The notes below the pieces were generated by a model, which did not search any database, was not told the origin of the DNA, and worked only from the letters and a program-made list of their open reading frames with translations. A stretch of 35,479 nucleotides of DNA from Nemertoderma westbladi (Eukaryota > Animalia > Xenacoelomorpha): contig JAUCBJ010003154.1 in NCBI GenBank assembly GCA_032718475.1, positions 1 to 35,479 of the forward strand, written 5' to 3'. Shown in pieces: positions 10,210 through 35,479 of this stretch (the first letter of the stretch is position 1; every line of letters starts with the position of its first letter). The position numbers and the translations under genes were made by a program.

Positions 10210-10286
10210 GAAAAGGCCAAAAACGTGCGCCGTGCATCCACAAAGCAGGCCACATGTGCGCGCTTGCGCGTTCTTGCGCACCAAAA

Positions 10287-10551
10287 ATTACCTGTTTTTC
10301 TAAACATATGTAAGTACGGAAATTTTAATTGACCATTTAATACGGTAATATAAAACAATACAATTTAAAATCATTAAATTGCAAATCTAGAGTACGGGAG
10401 TACGCATATTGAAAGTACCCAACCCCCTTAATGAGGCGGGTCTTTACAGTATGTCGTCGTATGCATTCGTGGCAGGTTAATTCAACTATTTCTTATTAAC
10501 TACTCGGTCTGTCGGTTTCCGTACTTACATATGTTTAGAAAAACAGGTAAT
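10287..10551. mobile_element. MITE with 36-bp perfect terminal inverted repeats
   Basis: ATTACCTGTTTTTCTAAACATATGTAAGTACGGAAA (10287-10322) and its reverse complement (10516-10551); can be read as TA-CCTG...CAGG-TA. Confidence 0.75.
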
Positions 10552-10557
10552 GTTTTC

Positions 10558-11964
10558 TGTCGTTATTCTGGTACATGGATCCCCCCCCCCCCCCAAATTT
10601 TTCTACAAATCTTAATGAGATTGCATGAAATTTGAAACTGAGTTAGTTTCACCTCCCTCCTCCTTACTGGGTGAGCCAGAATTTTTATTTTTGCATTCAA
10701 TCTTTAGCTACAGTACAAGCGTTTGAAAAAGGTGTCTCCGGTGATATTTCACCAGTTACACTGCAGTTATTCATGAACCTTATCGCGATTTGTTGGTAGA
10801 AATAGAAAGCTAACCATGCAAGAATTCCAAAATGTAAAAATATTTGAATTTTGTTGTGCAATAGCTGAGATATGAGCGTTCAAAAGTTTCATGGTTTTGC
10901 ACCTGCCACCTGCGTGAGGCTGTTTATTCTATTAAATAAAAACACTATATTCTAGAACATTTTATTTATGTATGAATAGCTACATAATAGTATGTTTAAA
11001 GAAGCATTGCAATGTTGCCCAGCTATGTACGGGATAAACAAAATGTTCCAGAATATTATGTATTTATTAAATAGAGTAAATGGCGTGCAGGGGAAGCAAA
11101 TACATGCAACTTTCGAATGCCCATAATCTCGGCTATTTATCTACCAAATTCTTGTTTTTGTTTTCAAAATGTTTTTACATTTTTGGAATCCGTGCACGAC
11201 TAGCTTTAAGGGGGGGTGTACACCATTTTGGTCAAAAATATGTCGAATAATGGTATATTATAATGCACCATTGAATGGTGTTTCGAAATCTGAAAACCGC
11301 TATTTAATAGCTCTTTTAGTTTTCAAGTTATAACAATTTCCATTTAGGGATTCCTATTGAAATTACTATTACTATGTATAATGAAAGGTCGATTATCTCC
11401 AAATATTTTTTTTATGAAATTGTCAACTTCAAAACCCTACTACTTCTATAATTTTTGAGCAATTTGTCTGAAAGTTTCTGTGGGTGTCTAGATAGCCACC
11501 CTGCATAAAAGTATCAGACAACTTTTCGAAATTATTTGTTAATAAAATTTAATACAATTTTTATAACAAACCTAAAAATTTAGACTAAATTTGCAGCGCC
11601 ACCTAGCGGTGCAGAATTATTTTTACAAAATTTCGCCTGATAGTTATGTTGCCCCATCTTTGATCTATCATATAAAAAAACTTTCATGTGATTAGATTCA
11701 AAACTGTAAAAGCCTTAAATTAGTACTACTGTAACAAATCATAATACGATTGAAGAATAACTGTGGTGTGACTGGTGCAATTTCGCCGGAAACACTATTT
11801 TCAAAAGATTGTAGCTAAAGAATGAAAGCGAAAATAAAAATTCTGGCTCACCCAGTATGGAGGAGGGAGGTGAAACTATCTCTGTTTCAAATTTCATGCA
11901 ATCTCATTAAGATTTGTAGAACAATTTGGGGGTGGGGGGTGGTCCATGTACCAGAATAACGACA
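10558..11964. mobile_element. Foldback-type non-autonomous DNA transposon (almost wholly palindromic), interrupted by a nested insertion
   Basis: tgtcgttattctggtacatgga...ctacaaatcttaatgagattgcatgaaatttgaaac mirrored at ~11885-11964. Imperfect inverted similarity continues inward to ~10960/11040; the right arm is split at 11206-11718. Confidence 0.8.
11210..11714. mobile_element. Nested TTAA-flanked non-autonomous element (Kolobok-like)
   Basis: TTAA (11206-11209) GG...CC TTAA (11715-11718). Removing it restores the host foldback's symmetry. TIRs are weak. Internal similarity to the 7.0-7.76 kb element (ttcaaaa...ctact block). Confidence 0.6.
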
Positions 11965-12099: not shown

Positions 12100-12888
12100 T
12101 AACCCTCTAGCGGGAGACTGGGTAACTGAAGAAGGAAGGATTAGTTTCCCTACAAAGCCACAGCATATGGTCTATTACATATCTACCAAGTTTCCGATTG
12201 ACGGATCATAAATAACGAAATGTTGGAAGGTTTTCACTTTCATACATTTAGCCCTCTAGCGGCATATTAAAGAACTACGGATCGATCACCTTCCTCACAA
12301 AGACGAGGCATGTGGTCTAGTACATACCGGTACTGTATATTCCAAAATTCAGCTTAAATAGATTAAGATCAAGGAATTCGCGAAGGTTATCACTTTCCTA
12401 CATTTCGCCCTCTAGCGGCAGACTCGAAAACTCCGGACCGATTACTGTCCACACAAAGACTTAGGATGTCTTCTAGTACATATATGACAAGTTTCAGCGT
12501 AATCAGATCATAAACAAATAAATGGAAGAATAATTTCACATTCGGGACATTTCGCCCTCTAGCGGCAGACTGGAGAACTGCAGACAGATTAGCCTCCTTT
12601 GAAATTTACAGCTAATGGTCTAGTACATACTTCCCAAGTTTCAGCTTAAACGGATTAAAAGCAAAGAAATGGGTGGCCATTTAATGTTTAGATATGTGGC
12701 CCTCTACCGGCAGACTGGAAAACTTCGGACCGATTACAATCCACACAAAGACTCAGGATGTCATCTAGTACATATATGACAAGTTTCAGCGTAATCAGAT
12801 CATAAACAACTAAATGGAAGAATAATTTCACATTCGGGACATTTCGCCCTCTAGCGGCAGACTGGAGAACTGCAGACAGATTAGCCTC
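12100..12888. repeat. Tandem array, 145-156-bp units forming a 292-bp higher-order dimer (left part)
   Basis: CCCTCTA(G/C)CGG anchors at 12103, 12252, 12408, 12555, 12700, 12847. Confidence 0.9.
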
Positions 12889-14180
12889 TGTAAAAGCTTC
12901 TGTGGGATATAACTGGCCCCTTTGCTTCGCAATCCAGTTTCCCCCCAGGCGCTGGAATACTCTAAAAAGGTTCTCTAACTGTATATATATTCCCCTCGCC
13001 CGCAAGGTACCGTTATAGGTGTTTTAACGGACATAAAAGTCATTCTGCTATATACGTGTTTTGGCGGACATGGTAAGGCAAAAAACCTGCAATGCACCAA
13101 ATACCTTTCACAGCTTAGCCGTGATGATTCATATTACGACATCTAACAGCTGGTTGCTGACATGGAAACAGCCATTGGACGCATGGTTCTTTGTTTGGCT
13201 TGAGCCAATCAGAGCGATTTTTCCTGTCGACGTGTAGCTTTTCGGCCGATCATAAGGAGAGTGTTCAGTCTTACTGTTTTTTCTTGATACTTTGTTGTTA
13301 TTGCTATCTAGGCCAGGAACAACGGCTCTAGAGTCAATTCGTTTCATACTTTTAGAAGAAACATTAGTAGGCTTAAATTATAGAGCGTATGACTGTTATC
13401 AATACAATGCAATTCAGTCAAATTCATAACACATCATATATCAATTTATATCAACTTGTTTCTATTCTTGTATTATCGGTGCAATATACATTATTATACT
13501 GCTGTTTACTATTGTGTTTGGTTGAACAATATTTGGAGAACATATATAAAGAACCCAAATTTCCCAATTTTCTTGATACACTACAGGTTAGAGAGACGGG
13601 TTATATATAGCGATTGCGACTTATATTGTTGTGGTTTGTAGTGAATTTAATGCTATTTGATAAGCCCTACATGAGTCAATTGCTGTTCGCTTTATATATG
13701 ATAAAATTCATTGACGGTCGGCAAATTAGTGAGCAGTATTGTGTGTTACCGGTAGTGTGCATGATTGTGATTGATAACTAAGCATTTCCTAAAGAATGCG
13801 CCTCATACGTGAATCTTAAGCCTTACCGACTTACCGTTGTGATTAGTATAAGTCATATCTCTGTTTACTTAGATAGAGCGCCACGTCCTAAAGGAACTGT
13901 TAATATTTCCCGAAAGTGAATAATATTAGTCAGAAATTAATTATTAACGATCAATCGAATAATACAATACAGTAAGCTTCACTGCAATAATAATCTAAGC
14001 CCTCAGAATCCAGTCTCCCGGGAATATCCAGCGGGTGAATGGACGCGCACTAGGCTGGCTTCTGCTAATGTTGTGTTTATTGGTATTAAATATTTGTTAT
14101 CTTCTAAAGTATATTTATAAACCAAAAGACATATAAATTTTGGCAGGTTAAACTGCTAAAGGTCTTCAAAAGCGCGTACA
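12889..14180 (+). repeat. 5' LTR, 1292 bp
   Basis: Matches 27591-28882 at constant offset 14702. Differences seen at 13481 (G/T), 13529 (A/T), 14095 (T/A). Confidence 0.97.
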
Positions 14181-14191
14181 ATAACAGTCAT
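14181..14191 (+). promoter_or_regulatory. Putative primer-binding site, non-tRNA type, complementary to the element's own LTR
   Basis: ATAACAGTCAT directly after the LTR is the exact reverse complement of ATGACTGTTAT at 13389-13399. No TGG start. Confidence 0.55.
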
Positions 14192-14246
14192 TGACTTTAT
14201 TGCAGTAAGCAATAAAGTTGAAAGTACCGGTCAACCGGTAAACCTG

Positions 14247-14372
14247 AACCGGTACTTCTGTAGGTCAGTAGGCCCAACTGGCAGAACCGGTACTGCTGTA
14301 GGTCCGTAGGTCCAACTATCAGAACCGGTACTTCTGTAGGTCTGTAGGCCCAACTGTCCTAACCGGTACTTC
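14247..14372 (+). repeat. 38-bp tandem repeat x3.3 in the retroelement leader
   Basis: aaccggtactKctgtaggtc.gtagg.ccaact at 14247, 14285, 14323, 14361. Confidence 0.9.
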
Positions 14373-14534
14373 CAATATAAGTACATTAGTATTATTTCGA
14401 TTGTGATCTATAGTATATTGTAGGCTGCCAGGGGAATAGGGATTGATCACCCCTCATTCCTTTGTATAGTTTACTTATTTCTGTCAGTTTTATTTCCTAG
14501 TAAGTTAATATTGAGCTGAAGACGTGTAAGTCTG

Positions 14535-15122
14535 CTCAGATTGTTCAGATAATTGTAGGCCGGACTGTTGTCGGATTGTTGTTGAGTTTGGAGAGATTAC
14601 GGCGTGTGTAGAGTTTGTCCGATAGAGTGCCAGTTAGTAAGTTGGGGCAGCCATAGCTGTAAGGTCAATCCCCTCTTAAAGAATAAGTCGTACTACCGTG
14701 TTAGAACGCATACTAACTAACAATTTTGGAATCTGCACATACTGTAGTTTATTTAGGCTTGACAGTATTCTGCCAGCGCTTTGGACTGTGTTTGTTTGTG
14801 TAGTCTGTTCAGGTACCGTAATAGTTATTACTCAGATATTTTGTAGGCTGGATTGTTGTCTAGCTATTATTAGGTCTGAAAAGATTGCTGCTTGTGTAGA
14901 GTTTGTCTGATAAAGTGCCAGTTAGTAAGCTGGGGCAGCCATAGCTGTAAGGTCAATCCCCTCTTAAAGAATAAGTCGTACTACCGTGTTAGAACGCATA
15001 CTAACTAACCGTTTTGGAATCTGCACATACAGTAGTTTATTTAGGCTTGGTGGTAGTCTGCCAGCGTTTGGTTTGTATTTGTTTGAGTATTCTGTACGGG
15101 TAGCGTAATATTTATTATTCAG
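14535..15122 (+). repeat. 288-bp tandem duplication in the retroelement leader
   Basis: Near-identical core gtgccagttagtaag...aagtcgtactaccgtgttagaacgcatactaactaac; anchors at 14691 and 14979. Confidence 0.9.
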
Positions 15123-16413
15123 AGTTTATGCGATTATTCGCAACATTCATGTCCCCAAGTTTATTCCTACAGTAATTGTGTTTGTTACACATACCGTTAT
15201 AGTTAAATTAACCCCGGTACTACACGGGCTGCTTGGCGTAGGACAAGACTGGTGACTTTGTGCTCTGGTCACTCCAGCAGATGCCGTGGTTCTTTTAACT
15301 GTTCAAGTATATTTAACTACTGATTATTTGTTGTACCAGTACTTGTACCTAATTTAGGGTTTAGTGTACAGTGCTTTCCGAAGTAATTAGTGTGTAGGCA
15401 GTATATTTGTGTTGTAAAGTGGTTAATAGGCACGCTGGATCTGGTAGTCCGCGGTAATTAACTTCTAGGTAGGAACACTCCGTGATACATAACGTAGTAC
15501 CTATAGCGATACGGTTATAGGTCGTCAGGCGGTGGTATTTTCCTATCTGGACAACGCAGTGTATTTACTACTACTTATTATTTTCAAATACCGTAGTACC
15601 CTGTCCTTTGTAATAACCAGAAATCTAACCCTTTGTTAGGCTGGTTTGTAGACTTCCTGTAAAATTACCCTAAAAATTCGTACGTAATATTTTTGTTGTG
15701 TTTAATTAGAGATTTAATCTCACCCGTATCGTACGTAATTTGTAGTATTAAGTAACTTAGGTAAATTAGAATTATCAGTTTTAGTGTCCAATAAATAGCA
15801 CTTCACTGAGAGCGCACAGCTTCTGTGTAGTGACCCCCCAGAAATAATAACATTTATTTCAAATATTGACAAAACCCATTTTAAACGGGTATATATCTAT
15901 TATAAATCAACTCAAACGATTTATAAATAGTAGGCCTGCCATACAACAACTAGGTCTAAAAATCAGTTGGACTACTGCTTAAATAACGGTAACAAAGTAA
16001 GTTAAAGTAACCAAGTAACCCTAAAATATTCAGAAAATCAATTATTCTAAAATAATTGACATACCGGTATTTACCATAGGCTTATTATATTTATTTCTAT
16101 AAATTTGAGCTGAAATCATACCGGTATTCTGTAATTAATTCTAGTTTATGATTATACTTATATATACTATAAGTGTGAGCTGTATACCGGTATTCACGAT
16201 AGGCCTATTATATATTTATATATATTTGTGCTGAAATTGTATACCGGTACTCTGTGACAAACATAGTTTACAATACTTATATATATATTATAAGCGCATA
16301 CCGGTATTCTAATACTGCAATAAATTACCGGTACTAGGCCAACGGTCATACTGAATTACTAGACTTGCTTTAACTGTAACTATAGCAGTAAGCATTCAAC
16401 TGTATAGCTAAAC

Positions 16414-19400
16414 ATGTCTGACACTCAGCCAAACCTGTCAGACAGCCTAATCGATACAACCATCTGTGACACAGATAGGAGTGTTGAGCGATTAAGAAAG
16501 GAGTTCAGCTCACCTCCTACTGAAAGAAAAGTCATCCCTCCAGTAGTGATATCGGACCCTAAGCTAATCCAACACCGTAGGTCCATCATCGGCACTCGGG
16601 CCCAAGTCAAACGGAACCAGGAAGCAGCTGTCCCACAGCAGCAACAGCCTAGTCAAGAAACTTGTTCCCAGCGATCCGATAGCTCCAGTAGTTCGGATAC
16701 TGTCGAACTGACCCCCGAACGCGGATTGCAGATGACGGCTAAAGCCTACTCGGACCCCCTTCTCACCCTTCCTGCCGCAGTGCTAACTACTATATTGATT
16801 GCGGTGGAGGAACATCAAGCCGACTGGGCGAGAAATAAGCGAGCGACCCAAGATAATTATGCGGGATACGCCAGGGAAGAATTGATGTCGATTGTCGAGT
16901 CACAATGGAACTTTCCCGGACCCGGACTCCCGTTAGATCTGTCCGAGGCTACTTGGGAAGATATACACAGGATGGGAGTGGCTAAAGATACTATGGATCC
17001 AGCTGTTTGGAAGAGGTCGGCAGCAGGATATGTGCAGGGATTCTTCGGCTCCTTAGAGAGATTAGAAGAACAACTGTTTCGACAACCCCAAGGACCTCAA
17101 GAGCAGGAAGAACTGCTATATCAAGTATGCGAAAGAACCCTACGCATTCGACTAATCCTATCGGCTTTTGAGGAAACTTCCAAAAGAAGACAGGACACGT
17201 CGCTGCAGGTTGCTGTCAAAACTTGGTTCCAGCGGGTAGGTCTCCAAGTACAAGAAACAGAACAGTGGAAATCCCAGCTGTCGGAGAGACTAACTTATGA
17301 AGAACCAACCGATGCCACCCTTTCTAAAGTGGAAGGCGAAGAGACCTCAGAGAAACCACGAACGAGAGACGCCATCGACATTTATCTGTCCGACTATCAG
17401 CGATTCCTAGGAGACGAAGAGTTGAGGAGACAGCTGTCTGGACTTTCCCCCAATAGTGAAGGAACCCAGCGTGTGTTAGATTCAATTGATGCTGAAATGT
17501 TAGCTGCTAACCAAGCTGAGTTTGATGAAAAGCTCCGCCTCACTAGAGTCCAAGAAGAACTAGTAAAGAAAAAACGGATAGAGGACCGAAAGGCAGCTGC
17601 AGTAACAGCGGCAATGGCCGAAGTGGAAGCAGAAAGAAAAGCGACTGTGGCAGCAGCAAAGGCAGTGGCAGAAGCAGAACGGAGAGCCTCTGAGGAGACT
17701 ACCCAACTTGAGTTGGAAAATCTGCAAGAGACGCAAGACAACATAAATAAACAGTTAACTGCTAGTCACATGCAGATGATGAGAAAATCTACTCCTAAAC
17801 GCCAGGGATATACGTCATCGGAGGAAAGCGAAACCACCGATCCTGAAGGCGGAGGAAATAGATCTCGTCTAAGCAGGCGTAGAAAAACATCTTACCGTCA
17901 CAAATTGCCTGATTTGCCCCCAGCTGTTAGAAGACAACTAGCTAGCACAGACTTAAGTAGTATAGAACCTACAGACCAAATTATTAAGGTCAAAAGACTC
18001 CCTACTATAGTTGATGAGCCTGAAATAATTAGGCCTGTCGTTCCCAGAGTCACTCCTGTGTTAGAGACCCCTGTACTTCCAGAGCTTAACTCTAAATTCC
18101 CTTTACACAGTACTACACTGCCTGTGCCCGGTAGAACAGTCCATGAGAATATCCCTGTCCTGGAAGCTGAGAGAGAAATCAAAGATTTGTCTCCCGTCGT
18201 CCCACGTCAGCCCGCTACAATGTTGGCGACTCCCGCTTCGGCGGTCGAGTGGGTAGAGGAGGGACGGCGGGGGATGAATCTCCTGCTCGGACAGATGCAG
18301 GAGACTGTCCACCAGCTTAAGGGAACAGTAAGGGAAAGTAGGGCCGAACTGCAAGAAGTGCAGCAAAGTATCACGCTAGAACGCGACAAATTAGTCAATA
18401 TACAAAAGGGCATACCAATACCCCCTGTAACATTGTGTCAACCTGTTAGGTCTGAAGTATTACATGCGCAAGGTGTGGAGCCTACACGCATCTATACTGC
18501 TAGTGAAGTAGAAACTCCTATAGCAAACCCTATTAAGGGTGATTATGTTGTTAACGATATTCCCTATAGACCTGATAATGATCCGAGAAATTTATATACC
18601 GATAATTCGATATTAAATAACACGATGGCCCAAGAAAGCTTTACGCGGCAGATGGCTAGAACAGAAGCCCGCCAAGCGGTCAAAGTGGGAGAGATCGTCA
18701 AATTCAATGGAGATGAGATGAAATGGTTACCTTTCAATGAATATTACAAAGACAGCATACAGAACTCTGTGCTATCTAACGGAGAGAAACTTAGGTTCCT
18801 CATCAAGTGCTTGGAAGGACCTCCCAAGTTAATGGCATTAAAGTTTATTGGACATCCAGAAGGATTAAGACAAGTTTGGGATACATTAAACATCAGGTAT
18901 GGTAACAAGGATAACATAGCTAAGTATTTGTATACCAAATTAGTAGCCCCCCGACACTTCCTTAGTAGCGGGATTATAGAGTTTTCCGATGAAATTCAGG
19001 AGATCTGTAGACAATTGGACTGGTTAGGTAAGTCTCATGAATATCAGAGTTCAATGGTTATTGGAGCCGTAGTCTCTACTTTACCAAAGGGTGGAGTATG
19101 TACACGCTGGGACAAGAAAGTGTTGTACATGAATGAACAACAACGACGAAGTCCTACCATGGCTGATCTCATGTCCTTCTTAGATGGTGAGGTAAAACTA
19201 CAACTCATCAAGCAGTCCAGAGAGAAAACATCGGAAAATAAGGTAAGTGAGAAACCCGCTTCTAGGAGAAGAATAACACCGGTGTGTTACACTGACGACG
19301 GCGAAAGCCAAGTTTCTCAAGAAGAGGACAGCGGGAAAGACACTGACCGATCTTACTACGTTGACAAAACCCCAAAAGATGTAAGTAAATATAAGGCTCG

Positions 19401-22400
19401 AAACAACGATAGGAGAGAACAGGTTGCCAAGACCCCCCCTCAGTCTCCTAACAGAATGCACCGAAGAAAACCCGAAGAAAAAACGAGAGTGCATCAAGTT
19501 ACCCAAGGTAAAGTGAGTAACATAAAACCTAACTGTGCGCTATGCGACGGGACCCACCGTTTGAGTGCGTGTGCTGAATTTCTAAAGAAATCCCTTGTAG
19601 ACAGACGTGCAGTTGTGTGGGACAAGCGGTTATGCTATAATTGCCTCAGACCAGGATACCAACGGCGAACCTGTTACTCCGACATAAAGTGTACAAAGTG
19701 TGGCGCGAAACATCACATCTTGTTACACAGTGAGTTCGAACGAGACAAACAGAGTCAGGTAAGTGAGCCCGAACTACATGTCCAATTCAGTGATGTAAAC
19801 GACACTGATCAGGAGTCTGAGATGGAAGGATTCTATACTGACGAATTCTCCGACGCCAACGAATCCTGTTATCTAATCAATACCGCAGTGTATCGAGCAC
19901 TTACTTATGAAAAGGACACCAACGATGAGTTTCCCCCAACTACTTTTGCCAAACAACCATCTTGGAAAGCTCCAACTTCCAACGTAGGAATCAGAGAATT
20001 TCCTGTAGTGCAGGTAAGAGTTCACGGTCTTAACAAAAGTTACATAGTGAACGCCCTCCTTGACTCCGGCAGCACAGGAACATTCATCGATCAAGAATTA
20101 GCCGAAGATATCTTTGCTGGACAACCCAAATTCCGGACTAAATTGAATATGTCAGGAATTATGCAGGTTTGGAAATCTACCTTAACGGCAGATTACTATG
20201 TAGGTGTGTTGTCCACCCCCCAGGATAAGATAGGAGCACAAGGTATAAGGTCGGTAAAAATGGTGGCTATAAAGAACTTCGCTGCTACTCAAGCAGACCT
20301 TTATAATTGGGACGAGGATGAGAGCATCCAACATCTTAAGATACCTCGATTCCAGACAGATTATCCTGGAGTGCAAATACTCATCGGCCAGAACGCGCAT
20401 GAGGCGCTCGAAACATTAGAGAAACGGCCTGCTCAACCGCAGCCACTGCAAACCTATGCGGTAAGAACTAGAGTAGGTTGGTACTTTACTGGCCCTTCCC
20501 GCAGGACTCTCGAAGAGAGAATGCCACAAGAACAAACATACCAAGTACAAGATTGGGAAGTGGAGAGCAGTGAGGTGGACGAACTAACTGAGAGGACACC
20601 ATACTCCTCAGATAATGACGACATCTACCAACTCTTCGATGAAGAGAACACAATCGACCTACTTACAGAAAACCAAACTTGGAAAAGTCAGGTGAACCTA
20701 TGTCAACTGATTCACCCATCGGAACCCATCGCTTACAATGACGAACTAAACGATGAGATAGAGCGCTACAACGTTAGAACTCGGGACGAACTAGCCGTAC
20801 GATTCTTTACTCAGGAACTGGTAGAGCCCCATTCATATGATAAGGCTCTATCGATAGAAGAAGAAAGAGCCAAGCAAATCCAGGAAACAACTACACGTTT
20901 TTTAAAGGACCAAGGTAGGTATGAAATCGGCCTACCATTTCGAAAACGAGAACCTAGATTTATAAATAACAGACCCTTGGCAGAGAAAAGAATCGCTCAA
21001 TTATATCGACGCCTTACAGCTAATGCTTCAGCGAAAGAAATGTACCAAACTCAGCTGAAGAAATTTATAACAAAGGGATACGCGGAGAGAGTACTGGAAG
21101 GAACACCAGTGACTGAGAGAACGTATTATTTAACACATCATTACGTTCCCAAACCCGGTAAACCCCATGAAGTAAGAGTCGTATTCGATGGCTCTGCTCT
21201 ATATATGGGCCAATCCCTCAATTCCGAGTTGTTACCAGGACCCAACTTACTCCAATCTTTGTTGGGAATACTTTTAAGATTAAGACAATATTCCATCGCG
21301 TTCGCCTCCGATATCGAAGGAATGTTCTTACAAGTCAAGGCGCTGGATCGAGATAGAGACAGCCTGAGATTTCTGTGGTGGCCTGAAGGAGACCTCAATC
21401 AGAAACCGGTAGAATATTGGATGACCATCCAGGCTTTTGGAATCATATCAAGCCCTTCCAACGCCTGCTCCGTGGTGCGAACCACTGCGAATGACAACCG
21501 AGACTCCTTCTCAAAAGAGGTGATAGACAACATAAAACGCAATATATACATGGACGACAATTTAAGGTCCCTTCCATCAGTAGAAGAAGCCATAGCTGTC
21601 GCGAAAGGAACGGTAGAGTGTTTGAAAAGAGGTGGATTTCGACTGACGAAATTCACTAGCAACTCTCGTGAGTTTCTGGAAGCCATACCGGTAGAAGACC
21701 GCGGAGCGAAAGATCTAGATTTAATAAAGGACGATCTTCCTGAAACCAAGACGCTAGGCTTGAAGTGGGACACTGAAAGAGACATCCTGTTTTTTCAGTT
21801 AAAACAGCGAGATAATCCAGTTCGGACCAAACGGATTTGTTTAAGTATCCTGAGCACTTATTTCGACCCATTGGGATTTATTAGCCCAGTTATATTGATT
21901 GCTCGGAGTTTAGTACAACAAATGTGGCTTGAAAACCACTCATGGGACGATCCGCTTAAAGGGGAATTGTTAAAGAAATGGATGAAATGGGAAGATTCTC
22001 TACCTGCCATCGAGAACTTTATAATTTCCCGTGCATATTTTGGTCATGTTCTTCCTACATATTCCTATCAACTCCATGTGTTTGGAGACGCCAGCGACAT
22101 GGGAATAGGTATAGTAGCATATCTGCGAGTCGAAACTCCGGATGGAATCAAAGTCGCCTTGGTTACCTCTAAGGCACTGATTAACAACAAGTTAAAGGTT
22201 CCTCGAGCGGAGTTAAAGGCGGCTTTATACGCTACAGCCATCGGCCGGAACGTAACGGAACAAGTCGACTATCCACTGGAGAAAACGGTTTATTGGACCG
22301 ACGCTTTACTCGTGTTGGAGTATCTCACCAATGAAGTCTGTCAGTTTAGCGTTTTTGTTACTAATCGAGTAGCTATTATTCTTAGTCGCACAAAGATAGA

Positions 22401-23523
22401 TCAATGGAGACATTGCCCTGGTACGATTAATCCAGCCGATATCGCCTCCAGGGGAGCAACTCCACAGGAACTGATAGATACTCCAGATTGGTTGGGTGGA
22501 CCCGACTTCCTGAGCAAGGAAGAGGATGAATGGCCTCCTCACCTTACTACGGCGGAGATTAGACAAGCCAAGGGAGCGGAGACAGTCAAACCTAAAACCC
22601 GGGCGAGTAAATCGAAGTTATTTAAACCGACTATCGATCTATCTGTATTACATACTTCCGGGAATGATGCTTCGGATCCACAATCCCTCAACACAAATAA
22701 GTCTGTTGTGGAAATTAGAGATAGAGATTGGAAATCTGGAATACCAGACGTCTCGCAAGGAATCTCACCCATGCTGCAGAGAGCAATGCATCATTACAGT
22801 TCCTGGAATCGGCTCTGTAAAGCCGTCACATATTTAAGACGATGTTTTCATCATCACTACTCCAGGACGAAGACCACTAGTGATAACGCTCCATTGACAT
22901 CTGCACACGTTCATGTTATTAAAAATTTACCCAAATATAAGACATCTGACCGTTTTCTAAAGGAGAAAATTAGTCACCAGGAGCATGAAGAAACCAATAA
23001 GCAGATACTGAGACTCCTGCAATGCTATGAGGATTCCGAAAAGTATTTCCTATTGTTGAGAAATCCGCAGATGCGCTTAAGGGATCGATTCTCGAGCACA
23101 ATGATAGATGGGTTAATACGTGTTGGAGGAAGACTCACCAATGCGCCCTTATCCTTTGACACCAAATTCCCCATACTTATTAGAAATCTTGAAGTACAAA
23201 TCAAGATGATTGTAGATGTTCACAGTAAACTTTATCATGCTGGTAGAGAACGAATTCTTAGCGAAATTCGAACTCGCTATTATTTTGATAAACCCCGTAG
23301 AGCCCTGAACCAAGTTCTTAGGAACTGCATACCCTGTAGGAAAGCATTCAGTAGGCCTTTAACACAGCGAGAGGCAGAATTACCTAGGGAACGAGTAAGC
23401 TTCTATGAACCACCTTTTACTAATACTGGTGTAGATTTATTTGGCCCTATTGAAGTATATCGTGCGAGGACTATAGTCAAGAGATGGTGTGTCATCTTCG
23501 TGTGCATGACTTGTAGAATGTAG
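16414..23523 (+). CDS. BEL/Pao Gag-Pol polyprotein, truncated in the integrase by a frameshift
   Basis: Gag core (KFNGDEMKW); three Cys/His knuckles (CALCDGTHRLSAC, CYNCLRPGYQRRTC, CTKCGAKHHILLH); protease ALLDSGS; RT NIYMDD; Pao-type RNase H (LHVFGDAS, WTDA, NPADIASRG); integrase H-H-CxxC and GVDLFGP. Confidence 0.95.
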   Translation: MSDTQPNLSDSLIDTTICDTDRSVERLRKEFSSPPTERKVIPPVVISDPKLIQHRRSIIGTRAQVKRNQEAAVPQQQQPSQETCSQRSDSSSSSDTVELTPERGLQMTAKAYSDPLLTLPAAVLTTILIAVEEHQADWARNKRATQDNYAGYAREELMSIVESQWNFPGPGLPLDLSEATWEDIHRMGVAKDTMDPAVWKRSAAGYVQGFFGSLERLEEQLFRQPQGPQEQEELLYQVCERTLRIRLILSAFEETSKRRQDTSLQVAVKTWFQRVGLQVQETEQWKSQLSERLTYEEPTDATLSKVEGEETSEKPRTRDAIDIYLSDYQRFLGDEELRRQLSGLSPNSEGTQRVLDSIDAEMLAANQAEFDEKLRLTRVQEELVKKKRIEDRKAAAVTAAMAEVEAERKATVAAAKAVAEAERRASEETTQLELENLQETQDNINKQLTASHMQMMRKSTPKRQGYTSSEESETTDPEGGGNRSRLSRRRKTSYRHKLPDLPPAVRRQLASTDLSSIEPTDQIIKVKRLPTIVDEPEIIRPVVPRVTPVLETPVLPELNSKFPLHSTTLPVPGRTVHENIPVLEAEREIKDLSPVVPRQPATMLATPASAVEWVEEGRRGMNLLLGQMQETVHQLKGTVRESRAELQEVQQSITLERDKLVNIQKGIPIPPVTLCQPVRSEVLHAQGVEPTRIYTASEVETPIANPIKGDYVVNDIPYRPDNDPRNLYTDNSILNNTMAQESFTRQMARTEARQAVKVGEIVKFNGDEMKWLPFNEYYKDSIQNSVLSNGEKLRFLIKCLEGPPKLMALKFIGHPEGLRQVWDTLNIRYGNKDNIAKYLYTKLVAPRHFLSSGIIEFSDEIQEICRQLDWLGKSHEYQSSMVIGAVVSTLPKGGVCTRWDKKVLYMNEQQRRSPTMADLMSFLDGEVKLQLIKQSREKTSENKVSEKPASRRRITPVCYTDDGESQVSQEEDSGKDTDRSYYVDKTPKDVSKYKARNNDRREQVAKTPPQSPNRMHRRKPEEKTRVHQVTQGKVSNIKPNCALCDGTHRLSACAEFLKKSLVDRRAVVWDKRLCYNCLRPGYQRRTCYSDIKCTKCGAKHHILLHSEFERDKQSQVSEPELHVQFSDVNDTDQESEMEGFYTDEFSDANESCYLINTAVYRALTYEKDTNDEFPPTTFAKQPSWKAPTSNVGIREFPVVQVRVHGLNKSYIVNALLDSGSTGTFIDQELAEDIFAGQPKFRTKLNMSGIMQVWKSTLTADYYVGVLSTPQDKIGAQGIRSVKMVAIKNFAATQADLYNWDEDESIQHLKIPRFQTDYPGVQILIGQNAHEALETLEKRPAQPQPLQTYAVRTRVGWYFTGPSRRTLEERMPQEQTYQVQDWEVESSEVDELTERTPYSSDNDDIYQLFDEENTIDLLTENQTWKSQVNLCQLIHPSEPIAYNDELNDEIERYNVRTRDELAVRFFTQELVEPHSYDKALSIEEERAKQIQETTTRFLKDQGRYEIGLPFRKREPRFINNRPLAEKRIAQLYRRLTANASAKEMYQTQLKKFITKGYAERVLEGTPVTERTYYLTHHYVPKPGKPHEVRVVFDGSALYMGQSLNSELLPGPNLLQSLLGILLRLRQYSIAFASDIEGMFLQVKALDRDRDSLRFLWWPEGDLNQKPVEYWMTIQAFGIISSPSNACSVVRTTANDNRDSFSKEVIDNIKRNIYMDDNLRSLPSVEEAIAVAKGTVECLKRGGFRLTKFTSNSREFLEAIPVEDRGAKDLDLIKDDLPETKTLGLKWDTERDILFFQLKQRDNPVRTKRICLSILSTYFDPLGFISPVILIARSLVQQMWLENHSWDDPLKGELLKKWMKWEDSLPAIENFIISRAYFGHVLPTYSYQLHVFGDASDMGIGIVAYLRVETPDGIKVALVTSKALINNKLKVPRAELKAALYATAIGRNVTEQVDYPLEKTVYWTDALLVLEYLTNEVCQFSVFVTNRVAIILSRTKIDQWRHCPGTINPADIASRGATPQELIDTPDWLGGPDFLSKEEDEWPPHLTTAEIRQAKGAETVKPKTRASKSKLFKPTIDLSVLHTSGNDASDPQSLNTNKSVVEIRDRDWKSGIPDVSQGISPMLQRAMHHYSSWNRLCKAVTYLRRCFHHHYSRTKTTSDNAPLTSAHVHVIKNLPKYKTSDRFLKEKISHQEHEETNKQILRLLQCYEDSEKYFLLLRNPQMRLRDRFSSTMIDGLIRVGGRLTNAPLSFDTKFPILIRNLEVQIKMIVDVHSKLYHAGRERILSEIRTRYYFDKPRRALNQVLRNCIPCRKAFSRPLTQREAELPRERVSFYEPPFTNTGVDLFGPIEVYRARTIVKRWCVIFVCMTCRM

Positions 23524-24439
23524 AGCCATCCATCTCGATATGGTGAACGATCTATCTACTAACAGCTTCGTCTTAAGTTTACGACGACAGATCGCTCGCT
23601 TCGGGACGAGTAATACCATGAGATCGGATAAAGGAACGAACTTCATAGGTGCCAACAACGAGATACAGGCTTACGTGAAGGACTGGAACCAAAGACAGGT
23701 GGACGACCAGCTAAGGATAACAGCGTCTAGCTGGACCTTCAACGCTGCCGACGCCCCTTGGTGGGGAGGAAGTTGGGAGAGATTAATTCGAAGTGTCAAA
23801 ACCGCATTTCACTTTATAGTGCCATGCCGCGCGTATCTCACCGACGAACTTTTGCGGACGTTAATGGAGGAAATCGCTGCCTATCTCAACGAGAGACCGC
23901 TTATGCCAGTCTCATCGAGTCCCGATTCCCTGGAAGCGCTAACACCCGCGCACTTCCTACTGAAGAAACCTGTAGCCATGCTCCCACGATCGGAGATTGC
24001 CGACGGAGACGAATACTGCCGTCGAACTTGGCAACTTATGCAGTTGCTATCCCGTCGTTTCGCTGACCATTTCGAGAAACATTATCTGCCAACGCTACAA
24101 CTTCGAACTAAGTGGTTTGCGCAGCAAGAAAACGTCAGCGCCGGAGATATGGTGCTTATTGTAGATCCAGACCTCCCACGTAAACGGTGGCAGACAGGTC
24201 GTATCATCGAGACACACATTTCAGATGATGGTTTAGTACGCTCGGTAGAACTCATCGTCATGCGGCGTAACTTCAAGAAGCCAGGCATCATCTTTGAGAC
24301 GCAACAACTCAATCGCCCAGTTGGTCGTTTATGTTTACTGGAAAGAGACAGAGAACTCTCCGGGAACTATGGAAGGCAAGACACTCTTCCCACGACCACC
24401 TCCCTAATTCCTCAAACATCTAGGGACTCCCCCATGTAA
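23519..24439 (+). pseudogene. Frameshifted integrase core and C-terminal part of pol
   Basis: Reads CRAIHLDMV...RSDKGTNF...PWWGGSWERLIRSVK...LNERPL...LTPAHFL...DGLVRSVEL, the expected continuation; displaced by a 7-bp insertion at ~23512-23524. Confidence 0.92.
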
Positions 24440-24959
24440 TACGTCTGGAGTGGGTGTATGACTATATTGTTTTATCTATTTTATTATATTTTATATGCGA
24501 ACTTTATTATGTACTTTATTATAATCGTTTTTATTCAATTTTATTTAGTAGAATGTTATTTTAGTGATTATTTAGTAAATTAGTGCAATATATTAATGTT
24601 TATTACGTACGTAATTACTTATAATATATATTTAGTGCGACGGCGAGAAATAATTTTTTCTCTTTCCTTACTGTCCGTATCATATTATAAATACGTGACT
24701 ACAGTAAGATGAAATGTAAGTACTTATTAAAGTACAATAAAGCCACTACTATATTCAAGTATTATTGGTAGGCAGAGTATTAGGAATGCAAAGTTCAGAT
24801 CCTCGTGTCTCGGCTAAACCAAGCTCTGGGTAGACCTTGGAAACGACTTGCCTCTTCACACTGACATTGCTTCGTGCGATATTGCTCTTCTACCTTATAT
24901 TAAATAATACATATAGTAGCGTGATGTCCCTCTAACAGTAGCGTAAAACGCAAATAAAT

Positions 24960-25260
24960 CTGTTAAACCTTTTGACCATCTGTAATTCTAGTCGATTAAG
25001 ATATCGCGGCACCCACCGATATACTTGAAAGACAAATTCTAGAATCAATGGTTAACGTCCCCAGACAAGTTCTGGAATAAATCGGTGCCCATCTTAAATA
25101 TTAATTTAATATTTGTTAAAATCTGTAAAATTCAGATCCGTTAACAATTCTAGTCGATTAAGATATCGTAGCACTTCCCGATACTCTTAAAAGACAAATT
25201 TCATAGAATTAAGGATCCTATGTCCCCAGACCTGTTCTGGAATCAAATTGTGTCAATTTT
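24960..25260 (+). repeat. ~162-bp duplicated structured unit in the pol-ORF3 spacer
   Basis: aattctagtcgattaagatatcg at 24984 and 25146, each followed by gtccccagac...ttctggaat. Confidence 0.85.
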
Positions 25261-26063
25261 AACATCAAATAATAAAATTCACGGGAATAAATTTAAATTC
25301 ATATTTTAAATGAATTTCATAAATTGTCGTTTTGTGCAATTTATAACATTCCCAAAATTCCATTAATTAATAGATCATGGGAGCGGAGATTCATCCTATT
25401 GAGTGTATTAGAGTGCGAGAATCTCCAACATATAGTCAATAGCCGATACAATTAATAAAATCATGCATAAAGAGGATATTGACAATTAAAGAATTATTAT
25501 TAAATAGCATCCCAGATCTGTATGCATGAGAATTACCCTAATTCTACCGCTAGCATTCCATAATGTCACCATAGCAACACCCACGCTAGAATTAGAAGCA
25601 AGTTAAAAGAACAATAGAAAGCTTGTCCCATTGCCTAGCATAGAGAATACATAGCACACTGTTAGTATCCAAGGATACACAGTAATAAAGTGACATTCTG
25701 GAAGGCACTGACTAACGGACAAATGGCCTGTGTGTGTGCAGTTGTTGACAGTTGTGTGGAATTTGTGCGTTTATAGGTGAATGTTACTGCTAAAGTATGT
25801 TTACAGTAGCTAGTCGCAATTGTAAAAATAGCCCAACTCTCCTATAGAAAGAACCTAAGTGGATCCAAGCCTTTGGGACGGACAGTGGAGTGACTTGTGC
25901 CGGTTATCGTTGTCGTGCTGTTGCTACATGTTGGCGTAAACACCGCGACGACGGTACATCGGCGCTGAGAATCCCACTGTCCGGGGGCAAAGAGAAGTAG
26001 GCAGCGACGTCCGCTCGCCTAAACATAAACTCATTTCGATATTAATAAACTCAGATAGCAGGT

Positions 26064-27512
26064 ATGACGGAGTTGATAGAAGATGATCTTGGTATCAGGG
26101 AGCGATATACTCTACCTTTGCCAGCATTTGTGGATAGCTTGATACGCGGTGAAACCGATCCAACCATTACGGAGGACGATGGTCGTTATATCGAACCGCC
26201 GATGTCCCAAGAGCAACTTACGCGTGAATTGGACTAGCGAAAATTCACCTCTCGCTATACGCATCGTAATAGTACGTATATGGACTTCCTAATTACCGGC
26301 CATCCTATCGATTTACATGATACGGACGATGTAGACACCGAAAGGGAAATGGTTCTATTTAAATATCATACCCAGCGGCGTCGTAACGATAAACCGAGAA
26401 TAGATCACGAAAATTCTATTCGTAACAGACTGGGAAGACGAACCAATATGCCTAGAATCTGAGGAGATTCAGCCTATCGCGCCCGGAACAGCGACAATGA
26501 TTACATCCTAGAATAGTATCAAGGTCCATAATATCTCACTGCGTACGATTATCGCCATGCCAACTATGTTTCTCGGCAACGTTGTCGGTTATGCGCATCG
26601 AGAGACCATGTTACGCCCATGGACACAAACGTCCGCTGTTCCTATTTCCACGAACAACCGGCGATGGAAATTTATTGCGCGTATTGCAGATTTAATAATT
26701 TGCACATTTTTGCGGTTTGCCCTCAATTTATGACTCAATGTCACCATTGTCAACTAAAGGGACATGCCAGTTTCGATTGCCCTTTTAATCACGATTTGGA
26801 AAGCGTAGATGAAATGATCACACTACGTTACATCAGAGCTTGGGAAGCGAACGCTGATTTACATTGTGATTCGCGCCATCGCTATTATCCCGGACGCGCT
26901 TACGAAGGAGTTTATGCGTTCCATCCTTATCTATTCGCTTCGGTTGAACAGAAATCACGCATATCAAGTTACGAGCTACTGAAGCGCGTCGGAGAATGTA
27001 TTTCAACCAAATTCGTACGCAAATTTCTCAGGAGTGTTAATCCTAGCGACCTTCATTCCTATAACTTAATCAATCATATCCATCAGGATCCGGACTATGG
27101 AGAATTGTTTGTTAACTCACACCCTGAGTTACAGGAAGTATATCGACGGCCTTACGAATACCGAGCCCGCGAACGCGAGTTGGAAAGGACCATTAAACCC
27201 CGGAGGTTTCTAACTGCCTATGGTCCACCCACGGCCCTCATTCAGACCACTCGTAAAGGACCCGTAAGAGCGGCTGTCTTGAAACGAGCTCTCAAAGCCG
27301 TTAGACCCCTCTCCCCTGACGTTGATGTCAATCAACCCGGTACTTCGACTGGCGGATACACCGACCATAATCCTACACCCTCTGATGCAATCATATTGCA
27401 CCCTTCACCCAGGAGTTATAGCCCTCCTTGTAAAGTGGCTCGCCCCAAAGAGAAAAGGACTCTGGCTAGCTTTAAAAGACTGCGTAAACGCCGTCCGCGC
27501 AAGAAAGACTAA
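26064..27512 (+). CDS. Extra ORF3 of the retroelement: Cys/His-knuckle protein with basic tail; 5' third broken by 4 in-frame stops, 3' part open (26532-27512)
   Basis: ATG 26064, ORF 26280 and ORF 26619 share one frame. Stops at 26235, 26460, 26514, 26529. Motifs CRLCASRDH..C, CAYCRFNNLHIFAVC, CHHCQLKGHASFDC; ends KRLRKRRPRKKD. Confidence 0.7.
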
Positions 27513-27582
27513 CTGTTTAGAGTATTTACGTATATTAGAAACTGTGATTTTGTATATTTTATAGACTCAAATCCCATTTTCT

Positions 27583-27590
27583 GGGAGCGG
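27583..27590 (+). promoter_or_regulatory. Short putative polypurine tract
   Basis: GGGAGCGG abutting the 3' LTR TG. Confidence 0.5.
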
Positions 27591-28882
27591 TGTAAAAGCT
27601 TCTGTGGGATATAACTGGCCCCTTTGCTTCGCAATCCAGTTTCCCCCCAGGCGCTGGAATACTCTAAAAAGGTTCTCTAACTGTATATATATTCCCCTCG
27701 CCCGCAAGGTACCGTTATAGGTGTTTTAACGGACATAAAAGTCATTCTGCTATATACGTGTTTTGGCGGACATGGTAAGGCAAAAAACCTGCAATGCACC
27801 AAATACCTTTCACAGCTTAGCCGTGATGATTCATATTACGACATCTAACAGCTGGTTGCTGACATGGAAACAGCCATTGGACGCATGGTTCTTTGTTTGG
27901 CTTGAGCCAATCAGAGCGATTTTTCCTGTCGACGTGTAGCTTTTCGGCCGATCATAAGGAGAGTGTTCAGTCTTACTGTTTTTTCTTGATACTTTGTTGT
28001 TATTGCTATCTAGGCCAGGAACAACGGCTCTAGAGTCAATTCGTTTCATACTTTTAGAAGAAACATTAGTAGGCTTAAATTATAGAGCGTATGACTGTTA
28101 TCAATACAATGCAATTCAGTCAAATTCATAACACATCATATATCAATTTATATCAACTTGTTTCTATTCTTGTATTATCGGTTCAATATACATTATTATA
28201 CTGCTGTTTACTATTGTGTTTGGTTGAACATTATTTGGAGAACATATATAAAGAACCCAAATTTCCCAATTTTCTTGATACACTACAGGTTAGAGAGACG
28301 GGTTATATATAGCGATTGCGACTTATATTGTTGTGGTTTGTAGTGAATTTAATGCTATTTGATAAGCCCTACATGAGTCAATTGCTGTTCGCTTTATATA
28401 TGATAAAATTCATTGACGGTCGGCAAATTAGTGAGCAGTATTGTGTGTTACCGGTAGTGTGCATGATTGTGATTGATAACTAAGCATTTCCTAAAGAATG
28501 CGCCTCATACGTGAATCTTAAGCCTTACCGACTTACCGTTGTGATTAGTATAAGTCATATCTCTGTTTACTTAGATAGAGCGCCACGTCCTAAAGGAACT
28601 GTTAATATTTCCCGAAAGTGAATAATATTAGTCAGAAATTAATTATTAACGATCAATCGAATAATACAATACAGTAAGCTTCACTGCAATAATAATCTAA
28701 GCCCTCAGAATCCAGTCTCCCGGGAATATCCAGCGGGTGAATGGACGCGCACTAGGCTGGCTTCTGCTAATGTTGTGTTTATTGGTATTAAATATTAGTT
28801 ATCTTCTAAAGTATATTTATAAACCAAAAGACATATAAATTTTGGCAGGTTAAACTGCTAAAGGTCTTCAAAAGCGCGTACA
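27591..28882 (+). repeat. 3' LTR, 1292 bp
   Basis: Direct repeat of 12889-14180. Confidence 0.97.
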
Positions 28883-29295
28883 GCCTCCTTTGAAATTTAC
28901 AGCTAATGGTCTAGTACATACTTCCCAAGTTTCAGCTTAAACGGATTAAAAGCAAAGAAATGGGTGGCCATTTAATGTTTAGACATGTGGCCCTCTACCG
29001 GCAGACTGGAAAACTTCGGACCGATTACAATCCACACAAAGACTCAGGATGTCATCTAGTACATATATGACAAGTTTCAGCGTAATCAGATCATAAACAA
29101 CTAAATGGAAGAATAATTTCACATTCGGGACATTTCGCCCTCTAGCGGCAGACTGGAGAACTGCAGACAGATTAGCCTCCTTTGAAATTTACAGCTAATG
29201 GTCTAGTACATACTTCCCAAGTTTCAGCTTAAACGGATTAAAAGCAAAGAAATGGGTGGCCATTTAATGTTTAGACATGTGGCCCTCTAGCGGGA
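28883..29295. repeat. Tandem array (right part), in register with the left part
   Basis: Anchors at 28991, 29138, 29283. Subtracting the 15,999-bp insertion plus TSD continues the 292-bp period. Confidence 0.9.
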
Positions 29296-29519
29296 GACCA
29301 TTGCACTGATGGTGTCTGAAAGTCTCTCAAAAATCTCAACTTTTGCTCATATTGATACCTACAAATTTTCAACTTGGCAGCTTTAAATCCGACAAAGTTA
29401 TTAGCATAAGGCTCCGCCAACTTCGTGGCTCGCCCCACAAAATTGACTGATTGAAGAGCAATAATCTCCTATTACCGTAGTCGTAGCAGTAGTCTCGCGC
29501 AATTTAAACTATCCTACTT

Positions 29520-34265: not shown

Positions 34266-35371
34266 GTTTTATCGCGTTTCCATTTACCATCAGAGTGTTT
34301 AACGAATTTCCACACTGAACCGTCGGACCTTAGGCTGTAGCTTTCGGAATGATCATCTTCAGATTTTGCAGCTTTATTAAGGTCATAAACCTCTTTATTT
34401 CTATCTTTGATACGCGAGCGCTGTTCCGCTGATAGACTCGGGCGAACGCGGATCTTTTTACATAAGTCTGATGATGATACATTTGCAGTCACATTCTTAT
34501 GAAAGGTGCGGGCCCCCTGTTCGCTGTTGAACGAGACTTTTACGAGACGGTCATGGTTCCCAAGACGTCCCAGTCGGGACACTTCGACCACCGAAGACTT
34601 GTCAACCCCGGCCAACTCGCAGAGCTGAAGCACCGAATCTTTAACAGACACCTCGTTATCTTCCTTCAGTCGTGAAATAATGATCTCTTTCTTTAGCTGT
34701 TCTTTTTGGAAAACATCTTTTATGGACTTATCCACAGCTCTGGAAATTGGTGTACTGGGATCGGAAGAATGCCTGGGCTTTCCTTTTCCGCGTTGCACAT
34801 TCCATCGCGAGGATACGTGTACATCTTCGTCCCCATCTAGCTCAGTTCTGAGTTCCAAAATTTCCGTTGATAGAGTAGACAGCCTAAGCGTTAAACTGTC
34901 ACTCAACATTTCAATTTTGTCAGAAAGCGATGTGTCCGGGGTTCCCGGGGAATTGTAGGACTGGACTACCAATCTACCTCTTCCCTCACACTTATTGCAC
35001 AGTATTTTACAGTTTACGCATTTGGCTAAGGTGGATACCTCAGTATTCGATAGTTTCAGGCACGATCCATGGATCCAATGTCCACAGATTTCGCATCCAA
35101 GGCAGTTCTTACCTGCGACTTTCTTGTCACAGTGTGGACAAATGTCCATGGAGTTGACATTTACCGAGTCGTTGTGGCAAGATGATGAGTGGAGGTCGTA
35201 GTCGCTCTTATTCGCGAACAGAGCACTGCAGATATCGCAGTTGTGTAGTTTCGACATATCTATTTTGCCGCCGAGGCTAGGTCTTGGTGCTGAGGTGGTT
35301 GTCCCTCCAGGTACCGCCCCCGCCCCAGCCATGCTTAGTCGCGTCTGTGGTTGCTTGTTCTTTGGTGGCAT
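34193..35371 (-). CDS. LINE ORF1: C2H2-like finger, PHD finger, coiled coil and RRM-like region
   Basis: CDIC-x12-H-x4-H; PHD pattern CPHC..CEIC..WIH..C..CNKC; RLG...R.VKVSF segment. Confidence 0.88.
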   Translation of the reverse strand: MPPKNKQPQTRLSMAGAGAVPGGTTTSAPRPSLGGKIDMSKLHNCDICSALFANKSDYDLHSSSCHNDSVNVNSMDICPHCDKKVAGKNCLGCEICGHWIHGSCLKLSNTEVSTLAKCVNCKILCNKCEGRGRLVVQSYNSPGTPDTSLSDKIEMLSDSLTLRLSTLSTEILELRTELDGDEDVHVSSRWNVQRGKGKPRHSSDPSTPISRAVDKSIKDVFQKEQLKKEIIISRLKEDNEVSVKDSVLQLCELAGVDKSSVVEVSRLGRLGNHDRLVKVSFNSEQGARTFHKNVTANVSSSDLCKKIRVRPSLSAEQRSRIKDRNKEVYDLNKAAKSEDDHSESYSLRSDGSVWKFVKHSDGKWKRDKTWTHVPVSDPTNNPSEASPPSENQ

Positions 35372-35479
35372 TGCAGCAGTACCGGTACGGTAGGTATTGT
35401 TGTATAATGCAGTAATGTATAACCATCCAGTTCACAGTTGCACCGTAGGCTGTAGGCTGTAGGGCTGTAGCCTTCAAAA

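Follow-up and report, generated by a model that had tools for sequence, protein, structure and literature searches.

A BEL/Pao retrotransposon of Nemertoderma westbladi with a candidate 11-nucleotide self-primer, and relatives in which splicing may build the primer

The 35,479-nucleotide stretch of Nemertoderma westbladi DNA analysed here (contig JAUCBJ010003154.1, positions 1 to 35,479, hereafter the window) carries a long terminal repeat (LTR) retrotransposon of 15,994 bp at 12889-28882 (Table 1). Its insertion is recent, since the two LTRs, aligned over 1292 bp, differ at three positions (13481, 13529 and 14095), have TG...CA ends and lie between two copies of GCCTC. A first-pass annotation of this DNA had placed the element in BEL/Pao, and its Pao-type domains bear this out: Peptidase_A17 matches at 1e-35 and is accompanied by DUF1759, Integrase_H2C2 and DUF5641, the Pol domains stand in the order protease, reverse transcriptase (RT), RNase H, integrase, and the TG..CA LTRs, the short target site duplication (TSD) and a polypurine tract (PPT) are those of the group. 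In its RT-RNase H region the element shares 40-45% identity with BEL/Pao proteins from corals, sea urchins, a sea cucumber, a mussel and a tunicate. The present copy is broken in integrase, as this domain continues in another frame. Contigs of four sequencing runs cover the LTR and the leader in large numbers, and the family of the element is therefore abundant and diverse in its host.

According to the international committee for virus taxonomy (ICTV), BEL/Pao elements have an 18-nt primer binding site (PBS) to which tRNA-Arg or tRNA-Gly binds by its 3' end (PMC8742986). No such site follows the 5' LTR of the window element, as the first-pass annotation had noted, and the first 30 nt beyond the LTR contain no TGG; the ICTV description is to that extent incomplete, and the element is not excluded from BEL/Pao on this ground. 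What adjoins the LTR is an 11-mer, ATAACAGTCAT, and alignment of the LTRs with their exact ends confirms that it is the reverse complement of 13389-13399, so that the element has what characterizes the Tf1 type, an LTR sequence of about 11 nt that can pair with a PBS right next to the LTR. The complementarity is exactly 11 nt long with a mismatch on both sides, the 11-mer occurs once per LTR (13389 and 28091), and the loop between the two sites measures 781 nt, in agreement with the fold-back across some 780 nt that had been proposed. The chance of such a match, initially put at about 1e-3 or lower, comes to 8.8e-4 from the base composition of the LTR and to 4.4e-4 empirically, 11 of 24,793 other 11-mers of the window having their reverse complement in the LTR. 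When the search is widened to offsets of 0-4 and to contiguous or spliced pairing, 4 of 150 control sites reach 11 nt for this element, and the evidence from the single element is then good but not overwhelming. No GT-AG intron interrupts its 11-mer, which is contiguous and shows no joint in the family contigs; a spliced alternative of 10 nt (13394|13586) exists in the window and has a weak donor (GTTATC).

It is likely that the window element would prime its own reverse transcription instead of using a tRNA. Self-priming is strongly supported over tRNA priming because in the relatives of the element the PBS differs from family to family and yet matches the LTR of its own element, and because sister families show paired changes. 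Relatives were collected with an alignment of 30 proteins as query and comprise 123 loci, 77 from metagenome contigs (the best 80 of 531 confirmed matches) and 46 from genome contigs. The latter, L078-L123, come from bacterial and archaeal assemblies (metagenome-assembled genomes) and are evidently contaminating animal host DNA. For 25 loci, comparison of two LTR copies established where the 5' LTR has its 3' end. Twelve of these carry TGGTCC-like sites of the tRNA type, which we take to be directed at tRNA-Tyr; seven are near-copies, leaving six families. The other 13, like the window element, have no TGG site, which makes 14 non-TGG elements in all. At first look the LTR complementarity of these 13 relatives is partial (5-9 nt) and begins after a pyrimidine tract and AG, and the rest of the PBS matches the bases directly before an upstream GT donor.

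All elements were scored uniformly for perfect pairs at offsets of 0-4, contiguous or across any GT..AG of at least 40 nt, with no strong splice signals demanded and with 150 downstream sites per element as controls. This count omits L009, whose LTR end was misplaced by the aligner and whose family is represented by L010 in the scan of further loci described below, as well as loci with repeats that were not LTR ends or ran to the contig end. A perfect match of 10-15 nt, mostly 11, between the PBS and the element's own LTR was found in 13 of the 14 non-TGG elements, in 11 of them only across a GT-AG intron and in two, the window element and L081, contiguously; none of the 12 tRNA-type rows exceeds 7 nt. 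Control sites reach the observed match length in 0-4 of 150 cases per non-TGG element. When PBSs and LTRs are swapped between elements, 4 of 182 pairs reach at least 10 nt, as against 13 of 14 own pairs, and two of these four belong to the sister pair L079/L082 and run through weak GT sites. The junctions use strong splice signals, with GTAAGT, GTGAGT and GTAAGC donors and acceptors made of a pyrimidine tract and YAG. The paired site starts 0-5 nt from the LTR end across elements, and the non-TGG PBSs all differ, each tracking its own LTR.

The other 98 loci, many of them too short for an LTR, were scanned without use of LTR ends for a strong donor, an acceptor and a downstream complement, and 15 gave matches. 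In ten of these the first bases of the site are GT, placed 0-3 nt beyond ACA (nine loci) or ATA (one), as an LTR end would place the PBS; two of the ten repeat families that had already been counted (L027 and L066). L090 has a 14-nt match after TTAAA, and the matches of L060, L070, L095 and L122 seem fortuitous. When 12 loci for which the contig is circular or the start of the LTR is known were scanned under relaxed conditions, L007, L019, L021, L029 (of the family of L032) and L020 were added, the last as a case of contiguous primer, and in L078 11 nt at offset 5 were seen by eye. LTRs that end in TA rather than CA occur in L016, L009/L010 and the family of L092.

Compensatory change between the two sites, which the first-pass annotation had named as a check on its proposal, is what the comparison of families brings to light, as both sites change in sister families. 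At matching donors, L079 and L082, whose RTs are 90% identical, have CAC/TAA against GTG/TTA; L001 and L044 (72% RT identity) differ by AAAAT/AGATT, and L020 and L021 (66%) by a contiguous TTTC against a spliced AATT. The primer of L020 would be contiguous in an LTR of 290 bp and that of L021 split by a 168-nt intron in an LTR of 401 bp, and the predicted sites of this pair show intron-less and intron-split states within one lineage. Two other origins of the split pattern were considered and rejected. That a trans-spliced leader supplies the primer's 5' half does not agree with distal PBS halves that differ by family and each match the exon end of their own LTR, and a TCAGT initiator as the cause of the AG before the match fails for most elements, in which the pairing breaks off at the AG and is taken up again at the upstream donor.

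How would reverse transcription begin in such an element? By analogy with Tf1, the RNA would fold back so that the PBS at 14181-14191 pairs with 13389-13399, the 11-bp duplex would be cut on its 3' side, after 13399, by the RNase H of the element, and the freed end would start minus-strand DNA with no need for a tRNA. In most relatives the primer would be built by host splicing of a cap-proximal LTR intron, and the window element, L081 and L020 would be intron-less forms with a ready-made primer. Plus-strand synthesis would copy the primer into the PBS and thus rewrite the PBS as its complement. Because of this copying the two sites would stay matched while drifting, with fast paired change, and the PBS would match the spliced joint rather than the DNA. 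Whatever lies 5' of the cut, with the intron, would be restored by copying of the unspliced 3' LTR, and the intron would survive for this reason, provided that the 3' copy stays unspliced. The primer may be internal to an RNA that starts about 100-120 nt upstream, rather than being its first 11 nt. We lean towards the view that a large, phylum-spanning branch of animal BEL/Pao elements has given up tRNAs as primers and relies on the spliceosome to make an 11-nt primer at an LTR exon joint, with only the cap-proximal 5' copy being spliced, and that the window element is a divergent form, high in copy number and free of the intron, whose internal primer is ready-made. If so, reverse transcription would be tied to splicing, the intron would be kept through the 3' LTR, and self-priming would persist with or without an intron.

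The copies of the window element's own family bear on the predicted cut. Of 22 contig pieces listed for 13345-13445, 19 end at 13398-13402, and summed depth falls between 13397-13400 and 13405-13408 from 70498 to 324 in run X1, from 57511 to 700 in run X3 and from 241 to 0 in run X5; depth is not copy number and the edge of the stretch may lower its right side, but a wider mapping of contigs has the same dip. Run X4, tentatively an RNA run, has no contigs on 13345-13445, from which nothing is concluded. Differing loose ends and small insertions are listed at 13402-13404. Since contig ends and depth thus fall at 13398-13408, conservation within the family, which also covers the 40 nt upstream of 13389, extends across the 11-mer and ends at the predicted cut, similarity being lost at 13400-13402. 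No joint inside the 11-mer was found in the family contigs, nor was any of splice type among the 15 of 58 joints listed. In the LTR of L020 short tandem duplications start right after the predicted cut, like the hypervariable sequence of the window family. Both would be explained if first-strand transfer at the cut were prone to error.

On where the RNA starts we depart from the first-pass annotation, which had proposed Tf1-style self-priming from a start at about 13389. Its self-priming part stands through the tracking of PBS and LTR in the relatives, and its start is doubtful, as the motifs of the window LTR point some 122 nt further upstream; the intron-split complement of the relatives, which Tf1 lacks, was invisible to it. 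In the strict Tf1 arrangement, a sub-case of self-priming, the primer would be the first 11 nt of an RNA that starts at 13389, and the first exon of the spliced relatives would be 3-9 nt long. The tight length of 11 nt would follow from a primer that ends at the cap and argues for this arrangement, as do the TATATAA that L001 has 31 nt before its primer start and the family conservation of the 40 nt before 13389. Then again, L001 is the only one of 14 elements with TATAWA 25-35 nt before the primer; the motif lies 133-135 nt before it in L065 and L003, a TCAGT initiator lies 87-108 nt before it in L079, L082 and L083, and the window element combines a CCAAT box and TCAGT about 122 nt upstream with a nearest TATAWA that lies as far as 340 nt upstream of the primer. 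To judge from these motifs an internal primer is somewhat more likely than a start at 13389, and we consider the strict arrangement doubtful, if still deserving of attention.

The own RNA of the element might also act in trans, with a short LTR transcript, be it spliced, ended by LTR polyadenylation or derived from a solo LTR, being packaged, cut and used to prime the genomic RNA. AATAAA-type signals closely follow the primer in several LTRs (directly in L079 and L082; AATACA at 13401 in the window element), and a loop of 781 nt makes pairing in cis less automatic. The present data do not separate cis from trans, but the primer of Tf1 belongs to the same mRNA (PMC7175516), and we regard a primer in trans as unlikely. 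As self-priming is read here from sequence, and as a strong hairpin directly follows the PBS of the window element, the pairing could instead be an RNA switch that controls packaging, dimerisation or translation while something else primes. This we hold to be improbable, because the paired site lies within 0-5 nt of the LTR end, at the very place from which minus-strand synthesis has to set out and which offers no other primer site, and because elements with a TGG site do not show the pairing.

No more credit is due to priming by a host tRNA half, for which the first-pass annotation named the anticodon arm of tRNA-Asn, with an incidental LTR match; this arm would presumably form about 8 pairs with 14181-14191, one of them G-U. 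With a tRNA primer one would expect the PBS to be conserved, as is seen in the TGGTCC group, whereas the non-TGG PBSs all differ and each track their own LTR. A search for tRNA genes gave none in the window and none in the 123 loci, the tRNAs of the host genome lying outside that search. Precedent comes from Copia lineages, for which half-tRNA priming is documented (PMC6317226). That the 11-mer of the window element is a coincidence has in its favor the 4 of 150 control sites of the widest search and the distance of this element from the others; with an anchored chance of 4-9e-4, a length and position that are the same as in the relatives, and a family conservation that stops at the primer end, we find coincidence barely credible.

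Several observations weigh against the self-priming account and its splice-built extension. Splicing, cleavage and priming are all predicted from DNA. L083 does not satisfy the perfect-match rule, having 11 nt with one mismatch in both of its LTRs, and six of the 12 loci with a likely LTR (L008, L038, L048, L055, L064 and L085) have no convincing site. In the L079/L082 pair the exon-1 part is only 3 nt long, and each PBS also matches the LTR of the other element by way of a weak GT. The stems that flank the primer duplex in the Tf1 pretzel did not emerge as a general feature, none of 13 relatives falling below 5 of 100 shuffles for either stem; in the window element 2 of 100 shuffles are as good as the leader duplex, with which a local hairpin competes, and 23 of 100 are as good as the U5 stem. 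A quick tree of 45 rows, with SH-aLRT as its only support, without L007, L019, L020, L021 and L078 and with no named BEL/Pao reference elements, places the RT of the window element, with a best identity of 45%, on a long branch of 1.62 beside but outside the main spliced group, with two tRNA-type rows (L018 and L109) inside the same larger group, and the label "spliced" needs three changes on it. A single origin with the spliced group is thus not shown by this tree, and because of the long branch and the tRNA-type rows the relatives speak to the window element by analogy.

Among known systems the closest are Tf1/Tf2 of S. pombe, Tf1/sushi and Tcn1, Ty3/gypsy chromoviruses that share with the window element an 11-nt LTR complement, a PBS directly after the 5' LTR and the lack of a tRNA site, as stated in PMC7175516 and bioRxiv 2022.12.06.519325. 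Self-priming is reported for Tf1/sushi and Tcn1 in bioRxiv 2022.12.06.519325, PMC2864245, PMC5341516 and PMC6317226, and the RNase H cut of Tf1 is placed between bases 11 and 12 in PMC7175516. Unlike Tf1, the window element is of BEL/Pao type, its primer may lie away from the RNA 5' end and its loop measures 781 nt; the three-duplex pretzel did not emerge as a general feature here, and the predicted primer of most BEL/Pao relatives is split by an intron, whereas that of Tf1 is not. The families matched are of Pao type and no chromodomain match was found, and the window element is one that probably works like Tf1 but lies outside the Tf1 group. Self-priming has also been proposed, again from sequence, for the TAR lineage with Houba and Osr-1, which are Ty1/copia elements of plants and for which the relevant section of PMC6317226 mentions no intron-split primer. 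With Belpaoviridae as described by the ICTV the element shares the Gag-Pol domain families, the TG..CA LTRs, the 5-bp TSD and a short PPT; it differs in having no tRNA-type site, in its 1.29-kb LTR and 16-kb length, as compared with ranges of 0.2-1.2 kb and 4.2-10 kb, and in an extra 3' frame (PMC8742986).

A literature search, with Repbase reports, subscription papers and supplements outside its scope, found no report of self-priming or of a splice-built primer in BEL/Pao. Term searches of the accounts of Sinbad, metazoan BEL/Pao elements and mollusc surveys returned no "primer" or "tRNA" wording, and term look-ups in PMC3601003, PMC9094657, PMC3286476 and PMC13524379 gave nothing on BEL/Pao self-priming. 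If true, self-priming would extend to a third LTR superfamily, in animals, and would explain BEL/Pao elements that seemingly have no PBS. What surprises most is the splice-built primer of the relatives: should the split form hold, a primer produced by splicing would be a route of priming described in no paper found by this search, and the host would gain a splicing checkpoint on transposition. The proposal makes a sharp prediction, namely LTR-derived 5' RNA on strong-stop DNA, and existing RNA sequencing and cap analysis of gene expression data can begin to test it.

Table 1. Features of the BEL/Pao element and its borders (window coordinates)
Feature	Position	Strand	Remarks
TSD, left copy, GCCTC	12884..12888	+	from LTR comparison
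5' LTR, 1292 bp, TG...CA	12889..14180	+	3 mismatches to 3' LTR
CCAAT box (13205) and TCAGT initiator-like motif (13265-13270)	13205..13270	+	candidate start ~122 nt before primer; motif only
Predicted self-primer, 11 nt, contiguous (no intron)	13389..13399	+	exact reverse complement of 14181-14191
Stretch variable among family copies	13401..13450	+	begins AATACA, 1-2 nt after primer 3' end; right edge approximate
PBS, ATAACAGTCAT	14181..14191	+	offset 0 from LTR end; no TGG
11-bp hairpin directly after PBS	14193..14219	+	-12.3 kcal/mol; p 0.005 by shuffling; in relatives no general feature
gag-pol frame, 2371 codons stop to stop	16408..23523	+	DUF1759, Peptidase_A17, Integrase_H2C2; stops inside integrase
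Remaining integrase with DUF5641, other frame	23510..24439	+	Pfam domains
Extra frame, 326 codons	26532..27512	+	Cys/His-rich start, basic end; before 3' LTR
Short purine-rich tract, GGGAGCGG	27583..27590	+	adjoins 3' LTR; resembles GGGGCCGG../GGGGAGCCA tracts of relatives
3' LTR, 1292 bp	27591..28882	+	second 11-mer copy at 28091-28101
TSD, right copy, GCCTC	28883..28887	+	5 bp

Other features of the element are its leader of 2.2 kb, which contains repeats at 14246-14370 and 14545-15123 (three 38-bp units and two units of about 288 bp), and a long, low-complexity N-terminal region of Gag. The hairpin after the PBS is unsupported as a general feature, being seen in 10 of 23 cases against 180 of 690 in the background (Fisher p 0.31). 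An Rfam scan of 12889-16400 gave two weak matches only, both far under the gathering scores. Some 2 kb of AT-rich non-coding DNA lie before the extra frame; the frame matches no Pfam family, and zinc-knuckle-like leads from the Atlas are weak, with a best score of 0.85 (below 0.9). Two scans of viral contigs found no relatives of the element.

The element has inserted into a tandem repeat of some 146 bp (12103-12888 and 28883-29298), to which the 125-nt match between 28882-29006 and 29174-29298 also belongs. Elsewhere in the window, inverted repeats at 10283-10794 and 11733-11964 (40 bp at 97% and 237 bp at 86%) suggest remnants of DNA transposons, a G-rich 24-bp tandem repeat in six registers lies at 2485-2695, and the minus strand carries a long interspersed nuclear element (LINE) at 31383-35431 with an endonuclease and RT frame of 961 codons and an upstream frame of 412 codons.
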